A stretch of 24,510 bases of DNA, from contig CAVZPM010000030.1 in NCBI GenBank assembly GCA_963777155.1, positions 1 through 24,510 on the forward strand, in the 5' to 3' direction. Below are positions 8,268-20,315 of the stretch, one piece after another; position 1 is the stretch's first letter; each line of letters opens with the position of its first letter. The translations under genes were made by a program, and so were the position numbers. The notes beneath the pieces were generated by a model, which saw nothing but the letters and a program-made list of their open reading frames with translations, was not told the DNA's origin and did not search any database. The DNA is from Candidatus Bathyarchaeota archaeon. GTDB taxonomy: Archaea; Thermoproteota; Bathyarchaeia; Bathyarchaeales; Bathycorpusculaceae.

Positions 8268-8305
8268 TTTAAATGTTTGCTGGTAAATCAAACATTCTGT
8301 TAAAA
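8268..8305. promoter_or_regulatory. Divergent atpF/atpI promoter region with 8-bp inverted repeat
   Basis: TTTAAAT at 8268-8274 (+), TTTTTAAC at 8305-8298 (-), AATGTTTG-N9-CAAACATT at 8272-8296. Confidence 0.55.
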
Positions 8306-8992
8306 ATGTTCCGACCAGAAAGAATGACCTCTACATCGATAATCTGCGTTAAGAAAGACGTAGAATTGATTTTGGAATCGCTTAGTAGCTTTGGAGAATT
8401 CCACATTGAACAAACTGCTCAAGACAATTCAGGTTTAACTGAGAACAACCAGAGCATCCAGAAGGTTGAAGGGTCACTTGCAGACGTTAATGTATTGATT
8501 GATCAGCTTATTCAAGAAAAATCTAGCCTGCTTGGCATTTTCAAGTTGCCTCAAACCACTAAAAGTCAGGTTACAGCTGAGAATTGGCAGACTCTCTTGG
8601 AAACCACTAGCCAAAGAATTTCAGTTCTTAAAAAAGAAACTGACAATCTAAATGAAGCCCTATCTTGTATGCAAGAAAAAACTGAACAACTCAATCACGT
8701 CAAAGACATGTTGGAACGGCTCAGAATAATGGACGCAGACCTTGCCGCCATGGAAGATCTAAAGCTAATCTATGTTGCTGTGGCAAGTGTGCCGACTAAA
8801 AACTTCTCAGGGTTAGAAACAGCCCTCGAAGGAGTCCCGATTTTTATTAATCGATGCTCTTTAACCAAAGAAGTAACGTTTGTTTGTTTAGCCCTCCCAG
8901 CAAAACATCAATCCAGACGTCGAGAAAATCCTAAGAACGTATCATGCGGAAATCTTTCATATTCCCAAAGAATTGCCACACGACGTTACTGA
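8306..8992 (+). CDS. atpI: A1Ao ATP synthase subunit I/a, N-terminal part (frameshift at about 8913)
   Basis: Typical MFRPERM start at 8306, then FGEFHIE and coiled coil; the reading continues in the +1 frame as DVEKILRTYHAEIFHIPKELP into the 8973 ORF. Confidence 0.85.
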   Translation: MFRPERMTSTSIICVKKDVELILESLSSFGEFHIEQTAQDNSGLTENNQSIQKVEGSLADVNVLIDQLIQEKSSLLGIFKLPQTTKSQVTAENWQTLLETTSQRISVLKKETDNLNEALSCMQEKTEQLNHVKDMLERLRIMDADLAAMEDLKLIYVAVASVPTKNFSGLETALEGVPIFINRCSLTKEVTFVCLALPAKHQSRRRENPKNVSCGNLSYSQRIATRRY

Positions 8993-10310
8993 AGCAATTA
9001 AAGAAGTTGACAAACAACTAAAAGAAAAATCAGATAAAGAAAAAATACTTTACGATTCACTAAAGAAAATAGGTGAAGAAAACAAAGAGAATCTTGCCTC
9101 ATTGAAGGAAACTTCGGAAAACATTCTCACTCTGCTGCAAGCTGAAAGAAAAATACTCAAGTCAGGTCGGCTCGCAACTGTCAAAGGATTCGTGCCACAG
9201 AAGAAAGTTCAAGAACTCAGTGAAAAAGTCACTAAGATGTTGGATGGAAAAGCTTTAGTGTTAGAAAACGAAGTGGCAGAAACTGTAGATCCGCCTACAA
9301 TGATTTCCAACAACAGATTTGTAAGGCCTTTTGAAGAACTCACTAAACTTTACGGTTTACCCCATTATAAGGAACTAGATCCGACCCCCGTTATTGCTAT
9401 GACTTTCCCGATTCTTTTCGGATTAATGTTCGGAGATCTTGGTCACGGATTAGTTCTATTGATAGGTGGATTAACTATTGGGAAATTAATTAAAGTCAAC
9501 CAAGGCATAAAAAACGTATGCTACATTATGGCTGCCTGTGGTATTGCAGCATGCGTCACTGGAGTTTTGTTTGGCGAATTTTTTGGAGCAAAACTGCCGT
9601 GGGGCCCTCTTTGGTTTAGCCCATTCGAGAATGTATTTACATTCCTGATTTTTGCCCTAATAGTCGGCATAGTACAGATAATCAGCGGCATTGTTTTGGA
9701 GGGGGTGAATTTCGCGTTGAAACATAACTTGGCTGATGCCCTCCTAACCTCACTGCCCAAAATTGGGTTCTTCTTGGGAGGAGTTTATCTGATTGCCGTT
9801 TACCAACTAAACTTTGGTGTATGGTTTAGTGGCCCAATATTAGCAGCAATAATCCCATTCATTATCCTAATCGTTGGAAAACCAGCGTACTTGGCTGTAG
9901 CAAAACCGAAAAAACATGCTGGGGGAGAGCATGCTGAAATGGACACCGTTTCAGGAAGATTGTTTGAAGGAGGAGACTTGGTTACACGTTTACTCAGCAA
10001 TACAATATCCTACTCACGAATTCTCGCCTTGCTAATGGCGCATTGGGCACTCATGCTAGTGACTTACACAATTGCGGGTTTAGTTGGAACCGCCTCAATC
10101 TTAACCTTGATCCTTAGCGGCATTATTATAGTCGGTGGAAACATATTCGTTTTGGCGCTAGAAGGCTTAATCGTGTTCATACACACGTTGAGATTGCACT
10201 TCTATGAGTGGTTTAGCAAGTTCTATCAAGGCACAGGATCAGAGTTCAGTCCATTCAAACAGAAATTTATTCATACCGACTTGATTCTTAAGCGAAAAGA
10301 AACCTCATAG
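8973..10310 (+). CDS. atpI: A1Ao ATP synthase subunit I/a, C-terminal membrane part
   Basis: PPTMISN..FVRPFE.L..LYGLP.Y.ELDPT, FGLMFGDLGHG, SYSRILAL (essential Arg), IHTLRLHFYEWFSKFY. Confidence 0.95.
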   Translation: MPHDVTEAIKEVDKQLKEKSDKEKILYDSLKKIGEENKENLASLKETSENILTLLQAERKILKSGRLATVKGFVPQKKVQELSEKVTKMLDGKALVLENEVAETVDPPTMISNNRFVRPFEELTKLYGLPHYKELDPTPVIAMTFPILFGLMFGDLGHGLVLLIGGLTIGKLIKVNQGIKNVCYIMAACGIAACVTGVLFGEFFGAKLPWGPLWFSPFENVFTFLIFALIVGIVQIISGIVLEGVNFALKHNLADALLTSLPKIGFFLGGVYLIAVYQLNFGVWFSGPILAAIIPFIILIVGKPAYLAVAKPKKHAGGEHAEMDTVSGRLFEGGDLVTRLLSNTISYSRILALLMAHWALMLVTYTIAGLVGTASILTLILSGIIIVGGNIFVLALEGLIVFIHTLRLHFYEWFSKFYQGTGSEFSPFKQKFIHTDLILKRKETS

Positions 10311-11889: not shown

Positions 11890-12852
11890 ATGGTTAAGAA
11901 AGAAGACAAGACTAAGAAGCTCCATCTTGAGAAAATAAAGCTGGAATTGAGCTTTGACTACCGTTCTTCACGGTTTTTCTCTCTTCTCTTTCTATCGATC
12001 TACGCTTTGGCTATAGCAATTTTCTGCGTGGAATACAACGTTATTCCAGGACCAGAATTCCTTGTTTTAGGCATCCTGTTTTACACTTCTTACAACCAAC
12101 GAACATGGCGTGCCCTAAAGGATTGGCTCCCATTTGTTACAGTATTCATTTCATATGAAATTATGTACAGCTTTGTTGGAACAATCTCCCTCTACAACCT
12201 CCATTCTGGACCACGCAATTTTGACGTACAATTATTCGGTCAGCTTCCGAGCTTGGTTCTTCAACAGAGTTTTAGGTTTCCAGCCTTAGACTACGCAGGT
12301 GCGGTCTTCTATGGAATTTATTTCTTTGTGCCAACCGTATTCGCGTATATCGTTTGGAGAAAAAGCCCAAAAAACTACTGGAAATACATAGTTGCTTTCG
12401 GCGTATTAACCTACGCAGCTTTGATAACTTTCCTTTTCTACCCTGTGGCGCCTCCATGGTATGAGTTTAACTCAGCTTTCACTTCCTCATACACTGGTCC
12501 TGTAGTCCAAAGAGTCTTAGTTAGCTCGGTTGACGTTAACCTTGGAATCCCAGTCTACAAAACATTGTTTGACTTCTTAGGCGGAAACTTGTTCGCGGCT
12601 TTTCCAAGCATGCATTCAGCAATGCCCTGGCTAGTTTTCATATATGCCTTCAAAATCTGGAGATGGAAATCCCTGCCAGTAGCAATAATCCCTGTTGGAA
12701 CCTGGTTTAGCGCAGTCTATCTTGGCGAGCATTATTTCGTCGATGTCTTAGGAGGTATAGCTTACGCGACTGTGGCGTTTATTGCGGTGGAGACGCTCTT
12801 GCCAATTCTTGCAAAAAGAAGTAGTTTCTTAAAGAAACATATGCCAAGCTAA
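11890..12852 (+). CDS. PAP2-superfamily membrane phosphotransferase, Aur1/inositol-phosphorylceramide synthase-like
   Basis: Multi-TM; YPVAPPW, AAFPSMH, SAVYLGEHYFVDVLGG catalytic His/His/Asp motifs. Confidence 0.87.
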   Translation: MVKKEDKTKKLHLEKIKLELSFDYRSSRFFSLLFLSIYALAIAIFCVEYNVIPGPEFLVLGILFYTSYNQRTWRALKDWLPFVTVFISYEIMYSFVGTISLYNLHSGPRNFDVQLFGQLPSLVLQQSFRFPALDYAGAVFYGIYFFVPTVFAYIVWRKSPKNYWKYIVAFGVLTYAALITFLFYPVAPPWYEFNSAFTSSYTGPVVQRVLVSSVDVNLGIPVYKTLFDFLGGNLFAAFPSMHSAMPWLVFIYAFKIWRWKSLPVAIIPVGTWFSAVYLGEHYFVDVLGGIAYATVAFIAVETLLPILAKRSSFLKKHMPS

Positions 12853-13026
12853 CTCATTTAGGATACCTCCAGTTTTCCTGTTCTAAGAATAAAATTTGCT
12901 TTTGGATTAAACTGATGCATACCTAGACTCTGGCAAAAAAAGTACAGGCGGCATCAAACGAGCAGAGAACTTGGGGCAAATTTAAATTCTACCCCTGCCT
13001 AAGGCACATAACAAACGGTAGTACTC

Positions 13027-14196
13027 ATGAGACGGATTCCCACGCAGCTCATCGGTCCAGTATGCAAAAACCCCCAACTCCTAAAGAGCTTTGCACGAGG
13101 CGGCTACAGGCAGTTTGTAAAATCCAAAATGGATTATCGAAAAGAAAACGGCGGCAGTTCGTCACTTTGGCTTTTAAGCCTAAGAATTACTCACCGCTGC
13201 AATCATAGATGCGCAATCTGTGCCCAGTGGGGCAAAACCGGGTACAACTCAATAGAAGATACCCCAAAAGTCGCAGGCGAAGTTCCAATTGAAACTTACA
13301 AAAAAGTAATCGATGAAGTCGCCCCAAAAAAAGTCCACGTTTACATAACAGGCGGAGAACCCTTCCTCTACGAACCACTGGTTCCTCTTGTTAACTACAT
13401 GAAAGAAAAAGGTCTAACAGTTCAAATTGTTACCAACGGGGTTGGACTTGAAAAAAATGCCCAAACCATAGTAGATAACGGATGGGACATGATTTGTGTC
13501 TCATTCGATGGTCCAAAAGAAATTCATGACAAATGCAGAGGAACCCCAGGAGCACTTGAAACGGCTACCAAAGGAATCATGGCAATCCAGAAACTAAAGA
13601 AGGAGAAAAAAACAAAGAAACCAGGAATCTTTGTCCTAACCACAATCTCAAAAAACAATGAATCAACTCTGTTTGAGACAGCAAAAGAAGCCGAGAAACT
13701 AAACCCAGACGGAATGATCATTTATTATTCTTGGTTCACAAAAGAATCAATCGGGCAAAAACACACAAAAATTGCTAAGGACAAACTAGGTATAGCACCT
13801 TTTGCGTGGAAAGGCTATGTCCGCGATACGTCAATATTGGATATTGAGAAAATCGCCAAGCAAGTTCAAAGAATAAAGTCTGGAAAATTCAAAAACCCCA
13901 TCTTATTTGTGCCTGACCTTAAACCAGAACAAATCAGAACTTACTATACTGAGCCGGAAAACTTTTTTGGGTACAAGAAATGTATTTCACCCTGGTTTCA
14001 ACTGGATATTATGCCAAACGGAGACACTGTCACATGTAGAGACTTCCCGGACTTTGTCACGGGAAACATCAAAGAATCAAGCATCGAAGAAATCTATAAC
14101 GGCGAAAAACACCGAAAGTTCAGACAAGCCCTTAAAAGCTGTGACAACGGAGTCTTCCCGATCTGCTCTCGATGTTGTGGCCTAATGGGATACTAA
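13027..14196 (+). CDS. Radical SAM enzyme with C-terminal SPASM/twitch domain
   Basis: CNHRCAIC, ITGGEPF, VTNG, VSFDG; C-terminal CISPW...PNGDTVTC...GNI...CSRCC. Confidence 0.93.
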   Translation: MRRIPTQLIGPVCKNPQLLKSFARGGYRQFVKSKMDYRKENGGSSSLWLLSLRITHRCNHRCAICAQWGKTGYNSIEDTPKVAGEVPIETYKKVIDEVAPKKVHVYITGGEPFLYEPLVPLVNYMKEKGLTVQIVTNGVGLEKNAQTIVDNGWDMICVSFDGPKEIHDKCRGTPGALETATKGIMAIQKLKKEKKTKKPGIFVLTTISKNNESTLFETAKEAEKLNPDGMIIYYSWFTKESIGQKHTKIAKDKLGIAPFAWKGYVRDTSILDIEKIAKQVQRIKSGKFKNPILFVPDLKPEQIRTYYTEPENFFGYKKCISPWFQLDIMPNGDTVTCRDFPDFVTGNIKESSIEEIYNGEKHRKFRQALKSCDNGVFPICSRCCGLMGY

Positions 14197-14228
14197 ACAT
14201 GGTCGCACGCTAAAGGAGTAAAACACCG

Positions 14229-15038
14229 TTGACCAAACAAACAAGTAACCAGCAATACAAACAACAGACAAGCTCCAATTCGACGATAAAGACACCTATT
14301 GACGTTGCCGTTTTAACATTTAACAGCGAAAGAAAACTGAGGGAATGTATCGATTCAGTTTACAGAAATATACCTGTTAACAACCTGATTGTTGTTGACG
14401 GTTTCTCCACTGATAATACCACAGCAATTATTCAAGAATACAAAGAAAAATATGGTAAAGTTATCTTTGTTCAGGAGAAGGGAACGAGGGGCAGCGCAAG
14501 GCAAACTGCGATTGGATTGGTGAAAACTGACTGGTTTGTGTTTGTGGATAGCGATGTGATTTTGTCAAACAACTGGTTTGCTCATGCTGAAAAACAAGTT
14601 AGCGATAAAGTTGGTGGTGTGTGGGGTATTGAAATATGGTCAGTTCTAAAAGATACCAAAATTATAGGTTTATTTGAGAGAGTTACTCTGAAGATTTTTG
14701 AGAAAAGAGGCGGAACCCACGACCTTCTGGTCCGTACAAAAACAGTGGAAGACATCAAGATCCCCTTTGAGCTACATACCTACGAAGATGGATTCATCAA
14801 AGATTGGATTGAACAGAAAGGTTACAAAGTCTTAGGTGTCTACGAGCCTTGTTGCATCCACTACCGGCCAGAAAACGTGTGGACACTCCAAAAACATATT
14901 GAGTTTGTCGTTAGTGATCTAAAATACGCCGTTCATCGCCCCATGCTGTTACTCTCGTACGGCTTCTACTCAGTTATCGTGGGCTTCCAAATTTTCGCAG
15001 GCAAAAACGACAAACCAAACAAGAAATCAACAAAATAG
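14229..15038 (+). CDS. Glycosyltransferase family 2
   Basis: VLTFNSE, VVDGFSTDNT, ARQTAI, FVDSD (DxD), YED; hydrophobic C-terminus. Confidence 0.92.
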   Translation: MTKQTSNQQYKQQTSSNSTIKTPIDVAVLTFNSERKLRECIDSVYRNIPVNNLIVVDGFSTDNTTAIIQEYKEKYGKVIFVQEKGTRGSARQTAIGLVKTDWFVFVDSDVILSNNWFAHAEKQVSDKVGGVWGIEIWSVLKDTKIIGLFERVTLKIFEKRGGTHDLLVRTKTVEDIKIPFELHTYEDGFIKDWIEQKGYKVLGVYEPCCIHYRPENVWTLQKHIEFVVSDLKYAVHRPMLLLSYGFYSVIVGFQIFAGKNDKPNKKSTK

Positions 15039-15151: not shown

Positions 15152-15397
15152 TTAACATTCTATTTGTTGAAAACCTGTAAGTTTCAATTTGCTTCCACAT
15201 CTACCACAAGTGATGACAAGTTCAGCAATTTCTCCATTGTAGATCTTGGTATCTATGATTTCATAGTTTTCGCTTGTTTCGTCTTCAGGAGAGATCTTTA
15301 ATCCACACTTTGTGCAATTGAATGATCCATCTTCTTCTATAGAAGAAGAATTAACAAGGTATTCAGATACTGCATTTTTTTGATTTTTCATCTTCAT
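15152..15397 (-). CDS. Small Zn-ribbon protein (2x CxxC)
   Basis: CTKCG...CGRCG; start uncertain (ATG 15397 preferred, ORF open to 15424). Confidence 0.75.
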   Translation of the reverse strand: MKMKNQKNAVSEYLVNSSSIEEDGSFNCTKCGLKISPEDETSENYEIIDTKIYNGEIAELVITCGRCGSKLKLTGFQQIEC

Positions 15398-15708
15398 GAC
15401 TGACCTTTTTCCTTGAATCTTCAATAATTATTTCTATTAATTAATAATTATGAATTGAGAATTAGTTAACAAAATATAGCTGTTATGTATTTTTTCAAGT
15501 GTTTGTTGAGAGAACACATAAGCTGGATATTGTTTTTTGTTGTCTTGTTGTACAGTTCCTTTGAGGTGTTGAAATATGGTTTTCTAAGTAATATTTCACG
15601 TATTGATATGTTCTTGTGTCCGACAGTTAGGCGGCATGGGGTAGTTTGGTATGCTTGCGGTATGTGCGAGGGTTTATCTGGCACTTTACGCATTATGAAG
15701 ACGTAAGA

Positions 15709-18560: not shown

Positions 18561-20315
18561 TTACCCAGCAGTATACGGTTTGCCATCAACAATATTGGAA
18601 GAATCAATATCGTTTAGCAACCCGTTTTGTAAGACAAGGTTGTATGTGTTATTGTTCAAGTTGTTGCCCCTAAAAGTGTTTTCAGATGAGTTGAGCAACA
18701 CTATACCGCGATAATTGTTTTGGATAATGTTGTTTTTGATAAGGTTGCTGGATGAATTGTTTATGAAAATTCCATTAAAGCTGTATGTTATTGTGTTTCT
18801 TATTAGGCTACAGTTGTGAACATTATTCAGAAGGATTCCTCCACCTGCTCCAATTGAGAAGTTGCCACTGTTTTGTATTTTAAAGCCAGTGATGGTTACG
18901 TTGTCGCTGACTATGGTAAGCAAGGGGATGTTTAGCATGTTGTCTCTGATTGTTGCATCTTCATTTTGGCTGATTAACAAGACAGGTTTTGTTATTACTA
19001 TGTTTTCTTGATATGTTCCGGGTTCTACTAAAACGGTTGCTCCTTGATAAGTTGCGAAGGAAGTCATTGAATCCTGGATACTGTTGTAACCTAATCCATT
19101 GTCGATATTTGTTATTGGGAAGTTCATGTTTGTTCCGAAGTCGTTTGGCCAATAAAGGATTTTGTTATATTTGATTTGGATTAAATTCTTGAACTCTGGG
19201 TCACTATAGACGATGTCTAGGCTTGAATTAAATTGGTTAACGAGATTAGTAACGTCTTTGTACATTTTTTGTGTCCAAGTGTCGACCTGGTGATATTGCC
19301 ACACTGAATCGTTTGGGCTTCGGAAACCAAAGCCATATTCCTGTGGCAGTACTACTGCTTGGTCTGTCTTGATGCTGCCGTGTTTGCCAGGATTATGCTG
19401 TACATAATTCCAGAAGCTTTCTAACGCGTCGAAATGTTCCTGCGTCAAGGTGGTGGATGTGTAGTTTTGTGACGAGTCGTAGACAGCAATGTAGCTTGCA
19501 CCTGAATTGTAGGCTAAAACCATGTCATCGTACATTTGAGCACCAGATTCTAAATAAGGCGACTGATTGTAGGTCCAAGTAACTATGGCACCCCAAAGTT
19601 TGTTTTGAACATTTGCTGCTCCTCTTGTCAGCGAGAGTTGCATTTGACGAGAGTTATTCCAACCAAACTGGGTTAGAACTGTATCATATCCAAGTTCATA
19701 GTCAAACCAGTACAATGCATAATCGGATGTAAACAAAGAAGACTCTGAGTTTCGCATGAAATCAGCCGTAGCCGTTACGCCGCCAGCACCGTGAGTCCAC
19801 AACCAGAAATAATAGTTAGAATAATCCAAATAACTTTTTGGCGAATCAGCTAAAACTGGATTAGTTATAATTTCAGTGATATCAAGCTGACTTCCGCCTG
19901 GTTCATCATAATAGTATAAGCCAAGCAATTGATTTCCATAGCGCTCTTTTGCTGATGTAAACCATAAGGACGGAGTGTAACCGATACCTGTGTCATGGTT
20001 AAAATCTTGAAAATAAACTGGCATGAAATACATTCCAGCGTTATAAGCATAATCACATGTCTGGTTGAGCAAGACCTCATTACTGATTATCAAGGGTGAT
20101 GCGATGATAAGCAAGTTAGTATAATTTCTAACTTTATCAATCAATGCTTCGCATTCGCCAAGTGTGCTGTTCCACCCTATCTCAATTCCTACGAAGAAAG
20201 GTTCAGACGAATTTGAGGTTTGGTTTACTGAGATATAAAGAATATCCAAAACTACAAAGAAAGATGCGAGCATAAGCACTATTAACAAAATAGATAGAGT
20301 TTTTTTATGTTTCAA
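18561..20315 (-). CDS. Secreted/membrane-anchored protein with C-terminal right-handed beta-helix (NosD/CASH-like)
   Basis: N-terminal KHKK plus hydrophobic helix; V.PGTYQENIVI.KP, NVTITGFKI, repeated GI.L.NSS.N.I.NN.I; many NxS/T sequons. Confidence 0.85.
   Translation of the reverse strand: MKHKKTLSILLIVLMLASFFVVLDILYISVNQTSNSSEPFFVGIEIGWNSTLGECEALIDKVRNYTNLLIIASPLIISNEVLLNQTCDYAYNAGMYFMPVYFQDFNHDTGIGYTPSLWFTSAKERYGNQLLGLYYYDEPGGSQLDITEIITNPVLADSPKSYLDYSNYYFWLWTHGAGGVTATADFMRNSESSLFTSDYALYWFDYELGYDTVLTQFGWNNSRQMQLSLTRGAANVQNKLWGAIVTWTYNQSPYLESGAQMYDDMVLAYNSGASYIAVYDSSQNYTSTTLTQEHFDALESFWNYVQHNPGKHGSIKTDQAVVLPQEYGFGFRSPNDSVWQYHQVDTWTQKMYKDVTNLVNQFNSSLDIVYSDPEFKNLIQIKYNKILYWPNDFGTNMNFPITNIDNGLGYNSIQDSMTSFATYQGATVLVEPGTYQENIVITKPVLLISQNEDATIRDNMLNIPLLTIVSDNVTITGFKIQNSGNFSIGAGGGILLNNVHNCSLIRNTITYSFNGIFINNSSSNLIKNNIIQNNYRGIVLLNSSENTFRGNNLNNNTYNLVLQNGLLNDIDSSNIVDGKPYTAG

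Follow-up and report, generated by a model that had tools for sequence, protein, structure and literature searches.

Three genes follow one another on the forward strand of a 24,510-nucleotide stretch of DNA from Candidatus Bathyarchaeota archaeon, hereafter called the window. The first gene (PAP2; 11890..12852) codes for a membrane protein of 320 amino acids, an Aur1/IPC-synthase-like member of the PAP2_3 family. The second (rSAM; 13027..14196) codes for a radical SAM protein of 389 amino acids that belongs to an uncharacterised family and carries a C-terminal domain of SPASM/twitch type. The third (GT2; 14229..15038) starts with TTG and codes for a small GT2 glycosyltransferase of 269 amino acids. 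Open reading frame coordinates confirm the originally predicted co-directional arrangement, with gaps of 174 nt between PAP2 and rSAM and 32 nt between rSAM and GT2. In the shorter gap, the sequence AGGAG (14214..14218, forward strand) can be read as a Shine-Dalgarno-like element, 11 nt before the GT2 start.

The region ahead of rSAM contains a conserved block (12972..13026, forward strand) with a BRE/TATA-like element, CAAATTTAAAT, at positions 12977-12987, of which TTTAAAT occupies 12981-12987. These approximately 55 nt before the rSAM start, the TATA-like element included, are kept across related loci, with or without a PAP2 gene upstream; beyond the block, the sequence further upstream is unrelated from locus to locus. 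The original prediction of a separate TATA-like element for rSAM and GT2 stands as far as presence and conservation are concerned, but the motif alone is not rare in the window: with one mismatch allowed, at least one match occurs in 84 of 100 shuffles. The rSAM-GT2 pair travels with its own conserved, TATA-bearing block, a putative promoter. One run of an RNA library, accounting for a small share of the stretch, gave a single contig of 227 nt inside PAP2 (11901-12127), which is no proof of transcription; the absence of contigs from rSAM and GT2 carries no meaning.

The PAP2 protein scores 85.7 bits against PF14378 (PAP2_3; cut-off 27), and hydrophobic segments are apparent in a hydropathy scan. 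Its only PDB sequence matches are chains of yeast AUR1 (E 5e-12), to residues 136-321 of which it aligns, sharing the motifs PPWY, FPS(M/L)HS (FPSxHS) and HYFVD. The Pfam match and these His/His/Asp-bearing motifs place it among PAP2_3 proteins of Aur1/IPC synthase type; together with the Pfam matches of rSAM and GT2 they bear out the family labels given to the three genes earlier. A model of the bacterial phosphoinositol dihydroceramide synthase (NF052609) aligns over the full length, but its 79.8 bits lie far under the equivalog cut-off of 480. We know of no ceramide in archaea, so the acceptor of an Aur1-like PAP2 must differ from that of Aur1 itself.

The rSAM protein matches PF04055 (Radical_SAM) with 69.1 bits (cut-off 29.5), and its CX3CX2C motif, with cysteines C58, C62 and C65 invariant in 50 sequences, assigns it to the radical SAM superfamily. 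PF13186 (SPASM) is matched above its cut-off, with 45.5 bits. A full SPASM domain has a seven-cysteine motif and two clusters, a twitch domain one cluster; in the C-terminal part of the rSAM protein only five cysteines (C319, C337, C380, C383 and C384) are invariant in the 50 sequences, and a PDB profile search matches this region to the twitch domain of BtrN (5.6e-8). The best PDB profile match is BlsE (3e-10), and BlsE, SkfB, ChlB and DesII are structural neighbours in a fold search. The sugar and cyclitol radical SAM enzymes BlsE, DesII and BtrN are only 15-23% identical to rSAM. Their substrates are soluble nucleoside- or aminoglycoside-linked sugars, and unlike rSAM they lack comparable coupling to a glycosyltransferase.

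Three named families were considered for rSAM and set aside. Its best NCBIfam match, the tungsten-cofactor oxidoreductase radical SAM maturase TIGR04317, reaches 105.9 bits at a cut-off of 380, and the tetraether synthase (Tes) model NF045702 reaches 49.5 bits at a cut-off of 450. HpnJ combines a radical SAM core with a B12-binding domain; the rSAM protein differs from it in having no match to the B12-binding Pfam family PF02310, and the HpnJ model TIGR03471 is absent from its best 25 of 79 NCBIfam matches. A mycofactocin system is likewise rejected, with 27 bits for the MftF model (cut-off 280), no MftC among the NCBIfam matches listed, and no MftA precursor or other mft gene found near the pair. 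A further candidate is the GMGT synthase (Gms/Hbs), described as a SPASM enzyme that resembles AhbD, is extended at its N-terminus by about 100 amino acids and has 7-8 C-terminal cysteines; rSAM gives 68.1 bits against AhbD (cut-off 500) and has an N-terminal extension of only about 45 amino acids and the five conserved C-terminal cysteines. We found no description of the rSAM family in the literature, and the ESM Atlas returned generic radical SAM/SPASM clusters only. At a threshold of E≤1e-30, some 1,250 clusters belong to the family.

The GT2 protein scores 68.8 bits against PF00535 (Glycos_transf_2; cut-off 23.3). Residue D57 and the DXD motif D107-S108-D109 are invariant in 22 orthologues, as befits the GT2 (GT-A) family, and a hydropathy scan detects one C-terminal hydrophobic segment (residues 239-257). 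NCBIfam models of AglJ, MftF-like proteins and SunS are matched weakly. Close paralogues occur in 115 of 120 genomes of the genus, so the specificity of GT2 is not readable from its family.

The conserved unit is rSAM with GT2, not a cluster of three genes. GT2 lies directly downstream of rSAM in 53 of 57 Bathyarchaeia loci, the remaining four having no adjoining GT2, and the two genes are adjacent in 12 of 12 loci from the genus. Members of the same rSAM family (45-58% identity) adjoin non-homologous glycosyltransferases in other lineages: the partner is MurG/MJ1255-like in Thermoplasmatota, and HpnI-like or diglucosyl-DAG-synthase-like in bacteria. In a set of 20 loci with 45-56% rSAM identity to ours, 17 have a Pfam-confirmed glycosyltransferase as immediate neighbour (10 Glyco_tran_28_C/MJ1255-like, five HpnI-like, one diglucosyl-DAG-synthase-like and one large GT2); two have no glycosyltransferase beside rSAM, and one fell outside the Pfam check. 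The HpnI-like and large GT2 partners possess hydrophobic membrane segments. The rSAM tree contains three well-supported clades, each with a partner type of its own.

Among distant relatives, the two activities can be joined in a single polypeptide. Six of the top 150 matches are long proteins (781-835 amino acids), five of them with an N-terminal GT2 match (three above the Pfam cut-off, two slightly below). These fusions were recovered by exhaustive search; a word search gave none of at least 682 amino acids at E≤1e-30. Their GT2 part is closest to the exopolysaccharide glycosyltransferase EpsD. Other distant relatives have a separate GT2 beside rSAM (loci L142 and L153). Conserved adjacency, the exchange of the partner glycosyltransferase across phyla and the fusions in distant relatives all argue that rSAM and GT2 act together, and on this point the original prediction is upheld.

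Beyond the observed gene anatomy, conservation, partner switching, fusions and fold, we infer a sugar substrate, a lipid acceptor and an order of steps. With a probability of roughly 55%, we propose that rSAM and GT2 form an operon for the building of a modified glycosyl head group, in which a sugar-modifying radical SAM enzyme and a glycosyltransferase work together, probably on a lipid-linked sugar. The operon would consist of two genes, rSAM first, under their own promoter. The rSAM enzyme, from a clade of SPASM/twitch-type proteins that partner glycosyltransferases, would most likely act on a sugar ring by hydrogen-atom abstraction; epimerisation, oxidation, decarboxylation, deamination and ring contraction are candidate outcomes. 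GT2, anchored by its C-terminal helix, would transfer the sugar, the acceptor being either a lipid carrier or a membrane lipid such as archaeol or GDGT. The rSAM step could follow this transfer, which is the order proposed for Cds and HpnJ, or precede it. The lipid acceptor is plausible since the partner glycosyltransferases have lipid-type relatives, and the sugar-acting enzymes among the nearest solved relatives of rSAM favour a sugar substrate.

Two known systems offer a precedent. Like the proposed unit, the calditol synthase Cds is a radical SAM enzyme coupled to a lipid glycosyltransferase, and a cds mutant reportedly keeps the plain glycolipid. The proposed substrate of Cds (Saci_1489 of Sulfolobus acidocaldarius) is a hexose on an archaeal membrane lipid, which the enzyme would remodel in place; it depends on a lipid glycosyltransferase, because the hexose is attached before remodelling. 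In a 2026 review, Cds is the sole archaeal head-group radical SAM enzyme listed. Searched against 398 genomes of Thermoproteota that lie outside the genus, among which we assume Sulfolobales to be covered, the rSAM family profile yields no match at E≤1e-25, and the S. acidocaldarius genome, one of 14 controls, has no match to PF13186, whereas rSAM has one. These results argue against rSAM being a member of the Cds family, the two being set apart indirectly, by profile and domain searches. In the bacteriohopanetetrol cyclitol ether pathway, the lipid GT2 HpnI works with the radical SAM enzyme HpnJ, which modifies the sugar once it has been transferred. Bacterial partners of the rSAM family align to the HpnI model over their full length (E 3.6e-20 to 3.6e-24), although these reach 72-85 bits at the HpnI cut-off of 310. 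A hopanoid link of these HpnI-like partners was considered and rejected, as a convincing squalene-hopene cyclase match was obtained in only one of five host genomes. On our best reading, the rSAM-GT2 unit would extend the logic of Cds and HpnJ with a distinct enzyme family.

A different destination of the sugar, though rather unlikely in our view, deserves consideration. The rSAM enzyme could alter an NDP-sugar before its transfer, in the manner of DesII, and the glycosyltransferase would then attach this sugar not to a lipid head group but to a polyprenyl carrier, an S-layer protein or a glycan of the cell surface. In 72 loci of the broader rSAM family, a DegT sugar aminotransferase gene is upstream of rSAM in 16, many of these with a GT4 downstream, and a flanking glycosyltransferase is present in 14. 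Such DegT-rSAM-GT4 cassettes resemble the nucleotide-sugar pathways of DesI/DesII, so the sugar may there be altered before transfer and end in a glycan. DesII and BlsE also rank near the top in the fold and sequence searches with rSAM, and the weak AglJ and MftF-like matches of GT2 point in the same direction. A simple hydropathy scan shows no clear transmembrane helix for the six fused proteins: five have no hydrophobic segment, and one (P0291) has a single segment at residues 75-94. Together with their EpsD-like GT2 part, this counts against our main reading. In rSAM's own clade (at least 45% identity), however, no DegT, nucleotidyltransferase or dehydratase gene is conserved beside the pair, the sole exception being an NDP-sugar epimerase/dehydratase-type gene at locus L088. 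The partners in this clade are related to lipid-type HpnI, diglucosyl-DAG synthase and MurG, and four unrelated glycosyltransferase families would have to have adopted the same unusual donor separately. Far less probable is a role in maturation, whether of a glycosylated RiPP, with a SPASM-type rSAM and a SunS- or MftF-like GT2 acting on a peptide, or of a metallocofactor or tetrapyrrole, after the fashion of the tungsten-cofactor maturase, AhbD or NirJ. TIGR04317 as best NCBIfam match of rSAM, followed by WgkB, AhbD and NirJ, is in keeping with such a role, as are the weak SunS and MftF matches of GT2. Whether rSAM stands apart from the maturases, on which the original prediction depended, receives a divided answer: its maturase-type matches fall far under the curated cut-offs (105.9 against 380, 68.6 against 650 and 68.1 against 500 bits), but the peptide maturases SkfB, ChlB and SuiB score level with sugar enzymes in the fold search. 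The surroundings of the pair contain no conserved small open reading frame; the most widespread candidate is present in only nine loci and on the opposite strand, which agrees with the earlier judgement that a RiPP is unlikely. RiPP-recognition, protease, transporter and mycofactocin genes are also absent from the vicinity of the pair, and in other phyla the family is partnered by glycosyltransferases that resemble MurG, HpnI and DGDG synthase.

The original prediction had joined all three genes in one pathway. PAP2 would then either transfer a phospho-head-group, as Aur1 does, or act as a phosphatase and expose a lipid hydroxyl, and together with GT2 and rSAM it would yield one complex polar lipid. 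We now consider this unlikely. Of its expected co-occurrence, the part concerning rSAM and GT2 is borne out, but PAP2 adjoins rSAM in only 12 of the 57 Bathyarchaeia loci, all in one subclade. Elsewhere PAP2 lies at the ATPase operon, next to AhaH/AhaC, irrespective of whether the genome has rSAM. Both genes are found in 49 genomes of the genus, rSAM only in 12 (of which six exceed 90% completeness), PAP2 only in 28 and neither in 31. This corresponds to an odds ratio of 4.5 (Fisher p 2.6e-4), the relatedness of the genomes being ignored, and where both genes are present they are adjacent in 14 genomes and 13-17 kb apart in another eight. In one genome (G023/L077) PAP2 and rSAM both look like pseudogenes, which we rejected as a case of co-loss, since frame breaks affect many genes of that assembly, the ATPase genes included. 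In four loci of halophilic Thermoplasmatota, a PAP2/PAP2_3 gene also occurs one or two genes away from the pair of rSAM and GT28; its product is only about 25% identical to the PAP2 protein of the window, and the four loci, being syntenic, amount to about one observation. The bacterial rSAM loci showed no PAP2 gene. The 2026 review mentions an unidentified phosphatase required upstream of lipid glycosylation, a role that PAP2 might fill, and the genome encodes two inositol-1-phosphate synthase homologues, which would also suit a three-enzyme pathway. The 174-nt gap and the separate conserved block ahead of rSAM speak against it. On our reading, PAP2 is a separate transcription unit whose adjacency to rSAM was acquired in one subclade, and at most an optional accessory.

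The two-gene reading makes the rSAM family a concrete target for heterologous expression and, more broadly, delimits a set of SPASM/twitch enzymes that act on sugars and are as yet unstudied. Bathyarchaeia and other uncultured archaea have polar head groups that serve as biomarkers, and to our knowledge the biosynthesis of these groups is largely unexplained; should the product be a new glycolipid, a lipid signal could be tied to specific wetland archaea. A bolder proposal, possible but short of probable, is that the rSAM clade represents a third, independently evolved route, beside Cds and HpnJ, by which a hexose linked to a lipid is rebuilt as a non-standard head group, perhaps carbocyclic, deoxy, keto or epimerised. 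Gene transfer may have spread this route over Bathyarchaeia of wetlands, Thermoplasmatota of saline habitats and several phyla of bacteria, and the orphan intact polar lipids that lipidomes of peat and sediment contain could stem from it. The genome holds two Tes homologues above the curated cut-off (668 and 464 bits), so GDGT lipids are to be expected in this organism.

Three co-directional genes lie between positions 11890 and 15038, as the original prediction had stated, and both open reading frames and Pfam matches bear them out. The first, PAP2 (11890-12852, 320 amino acids; PAP2_3, 85.7 bits), codes for an Aur1/IPC-synthase-like protein. It is followed by a radical SAM gene (rSAM; 13027-14196, 389 amino acids; Radical_SAM, 69.1 bits, and SPASM, 45.5 bits) and by a small glycosyltransferase gene with a TTG start (GT2; 14229-15038, 269 amino acids; Glycos_transf_2, 68.8 bits). 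The intergenic gaps, calculated from ORF coordinates, are the predicted 174 nt and 32 nt. None of the three proteins reaches the cut-off of any NCBIfam model, the best matches being phosphoinositol dihydroceramide synthase for PAP2 (79.8 bits, cut-off 480), tungsten-cofactor radical SAM maturase for rSAM (105.9 bits, cut-off 380) and HpsE for GT2 (51.2 bits, cut-off 300). The trio is surrounded by A-type ATP synthase subunits, a PadR regulator and others, and Pfam/NCBIfam annotation of the surrounding genes revealed no additional lipid genes. Close homologues are labelled Bathyarchaeia or Bathyarchaeota, and near-identical DNA is found in runs labelled as wetland, soil and freshwater-sediment metagenomes.

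In 12 orthologous loci of the genus, GT2 is located 3' of rSAM without exception and PAP2 5' of rSAM in only four. The same picture emerges from 77 genome-contig loci: among the 57 whose rSAM is at least 70% identical to that of the window, GT2 lies directly downstream in 53 (52 identified by the gap between the genes and one more, L056, with overlapping matches) and PAP2 upstream in 12. About 55 nt 5' of the rSAM start, with CAAATTTAAAT, are kept across loci whose further-upstream sequence differs entirely, and AGGAG precedes the GT2 start. Because of this adjacency, the conserved upstream block and the AGGAG, rSAM and GT2 are, judged from sequence, one unit with its own predicted promoter. 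Small-GT2 paralogues (45-54% identical) are present in 115 of 120 genus genomes, unlinked to rSAM and often two in tandem (for example G444:C43:18843-20288 and G433:C141:14014-15528, given as genome, contig and positions); next to these, the copy linked to rSAM seems to be a duplicate that has specialised.

Homologues that align with rSAM over their full length at 45-58% identity come from Thermoplasmatota and from bacteria with the labels Vulcanimicrobiota, Bacillota, Xenobia and Aminicenantes. A Pfam-confirmed glycosyltransferase directly adjoins rSAM in 17 of 20 such loci outside Bathyarchaeia; in one of the remaining three the contig ends within the neighbouring gene, and two have no glycosyltransferase neighbour. 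The partners are Glyco_tran_28_C proteins in ten loci (best NCBIfam matches MJ1255/VC2487 and MurG), membrane GT2/GT21 proteins aligning end-to-end with HpnI of the hopanoid cyclitol ether pathway in five (72-85 bits, cut-off 310), and a diglucosyl-diacylglycerol-synthase-like protein and a large GT2 with several hydrophobic segments in one each. A maximum-likelihood tree of rSAM separates a bacterial, a Thermoplasmatota and a Bathyarchaeia clade, all three well supported and each associated with its own type of partner. Since non-homologous glycosyltransferases replace the partner across lineages, we see here strong evidence for a functional tie between rSAM and a glycosyl transfer step.

The position of PAP2 is different. 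By sequence, the protein itself is truly related to Aur1: within the PDB only AUR1 chains match its sequence (E 5e-12), and the motifs PPWY, FPSxHS and HYFVD are common to both. A 227-nt contig from a run recorded as metatranscriptomic is 100% identical to PAP2 at 11901-12127, which alone is no proof of transcription. Among the 120 genus genomes, rSAM is present in 61 and PAP2 in 77 (both in 49, rSAM only in 12, PAP2 only in 28, neither in 31), corresponding to an odds ratio of 4.5 (Fisher p 2.6e-4, uncorrected for relatedness). In the 49 genomes with both genes, coordinates place them adjacent in 14 and 13-17 kb apart in eight. Where PAP2 lies away from rSAM it adjoins AhaH/AhaC genes, so the adjacency in the window looks like an rSAM-GT2 unit beside a fixed PAP2 position. 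A PAP2/PAP2_3 gene is also found near the pair in four syntenic halophilic Thermoplasmatota loci, but the proteins share no more than some 25% identity with PAP2 of the window. The link of PAP2 to rSAM-GT2 is suggestive, not obligatory; of the predicted co-occurrence of three genes, the rSAM-GT2 part stands, and the PAP2 part is weakened by its rarity upstream and by the rSAM-only and PAP2-only genomes.

With a threshold of E<=1e-30, an exhaustive profile search gave 1,253 representative clusters. Among the best 150 of them are six proteins of 781-835 amino acids with a C-terminal rSAM/SPASM domain (P0266, P0269, P0279, P0281, P0291 and P0349), five of which have an N-terminal GT2 match (three above the Pfam cut-off, two just below), most similar to EpsD. 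The GT2 part is followed by a linker of about 200 amino acids without Pfam match; a simple hydropathy scan found no hydrophobic segment in five of the six proteins and one in P0291 (residues 75-94). With the fusion alignment as query, 80 loci were retrieved, their relatives being 28-38% identical to the alignment, and the rSAM ORF was delimited in 72. A DegT/DnrJ/EryC1 aminotransferase lies directly 5' of rSAM in 16 of these 72, a flanking glycosyltransferase, mostly GT4, in 14 and a flanking B12-dependent radical SAM gene in four; elsewhere the genes next to rSAM code for glycoside hydrolases or are unrelated. A separate GT2 adjoins rSAM in two further loci, L142 and L153. The DegT-rSAM-GT4 cassette, which appears to be uncharacterised, is found repeatedly under the labels Omnitrophota, Nitrospiraceae, Deferribacteres and Thermodesulfobacteriota, and DegT alone precedes rSAM in Elusimicrobia/Elusimicrobiota and Scalindua loci (loci with cassette or DegT include L109, L111, L122, L123, L136, L151, L160 and L162). 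We take the DegT-rSAM layout to resemble DesI/DesII of desosamine synthesis, and because of it a nucleotide-sugar mechanism is a possible one.

The rSAM family retains C58/C62/C65 and five C-terminal cysteines. Its best PDB profile match is the cytosylglucuronate decarboxylase BlsE (3e-10), and residues 318-384 align with the twitch domain of BtrN. Foldseek searches with the AlphaFold model (mean pLDDT 88.7, pTM 0.90) gave SkfB, BlsE and DesII as best structural matches; sugar enzymes tie with peptide maturases in this ranking, so that the substrate cannot be read from the fold alone. Maturation of a RiPP is unlikely, as had been predicted, because no conserved small ORF flanks the rSAM-GT2 pair: the widest candidate, a 38-amino-acid Cys-rich ORF just 3' of GT2, is present in only nine loci (L029:8078-8194 (-) and eight further ones) and on the opposite strand. 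This ORF is absent from the window, where a 90-amino-acid zinc-ribbon-like ORF is located at 15152-15424 (-). Against maturation of a cofactor by rSAM, the NCBIfam maturase models score far under their cut-offs.

Within the glycosyl-transfer reading, product and acceptor of the unit are matters we infer. The main alternatives concern order and destination: rSAM may act on the sugar either before or after its transfer, and the sugar may be placed on a membrane lipid or, instead, on a carrier or glycan. The window's genome codes for two homologues of tetraether synthase (Tes) over the curated cut-off and two of myo-inositol-1-phosphate synthase (together G000:C1:34413-35834, G000:C38:150860-152299, G000:C1:146757-147074 and G000:C39:609-920), which would make GDGT and inositol lipids plausible substrates. 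The observation behind the original prediction is confirmed, and its interpretation as a lipid head-group pathway is supported in part.

A 2026 review names Tes, Mss, Gms, GrsA/B, Gmm, calditol synthase (Cds), HpnH/J/P/R, Jaw5 and ladderane enzymes as lipid radical SAM enzymes; of these, only Cds and HpnJ act on head groups, both being proposed to contract a lipid-linked hexose. Further ones, from a 2025 preprint, are B12-dependent methylases and a desaturase. The window rSAM differs from Tes (49.5 bits, cut-off 450) and has no B12-binding domain according to Pfam. At a threshold of E<=1e-25, its family profile had no match in 398 Thermoproteota genomes outside the genus. Because the S. acidocaldarius control genome gives no SPASM match, Cds seems, judged by genome searches, to fall into a different subclass. 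The family parallels the logic of Cds and HpnJ, yet appears to be neither of them, and literature searches found no description of it. With Cds set apart in this indirect way, we propose as the novel element a putative glycosyltransferase-coupled, sugar-acting SPASM/twitch family of radical SAM enzymes.

Two other features of the window deserve mention. A 584-amino-acid protein (18561-20315 (-)) has no Pfam/NCBIfam match in its N-terminal 420 residues; the C-terminal part that follows carries NosD/right-handed beta-helix repeats. The two ORFs that make up ATP synthase subunit I (8273-10310 (+)), at 8273-8992 and at 8973-10310, overlap and differ in frame, a break due to a frameshift or else to an error of assembly. 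Among related loci, at least five (L029, L031, L033, L034 and L075) have both halves in a single frame, and many comparable frame breaks are present in several related assemblies.
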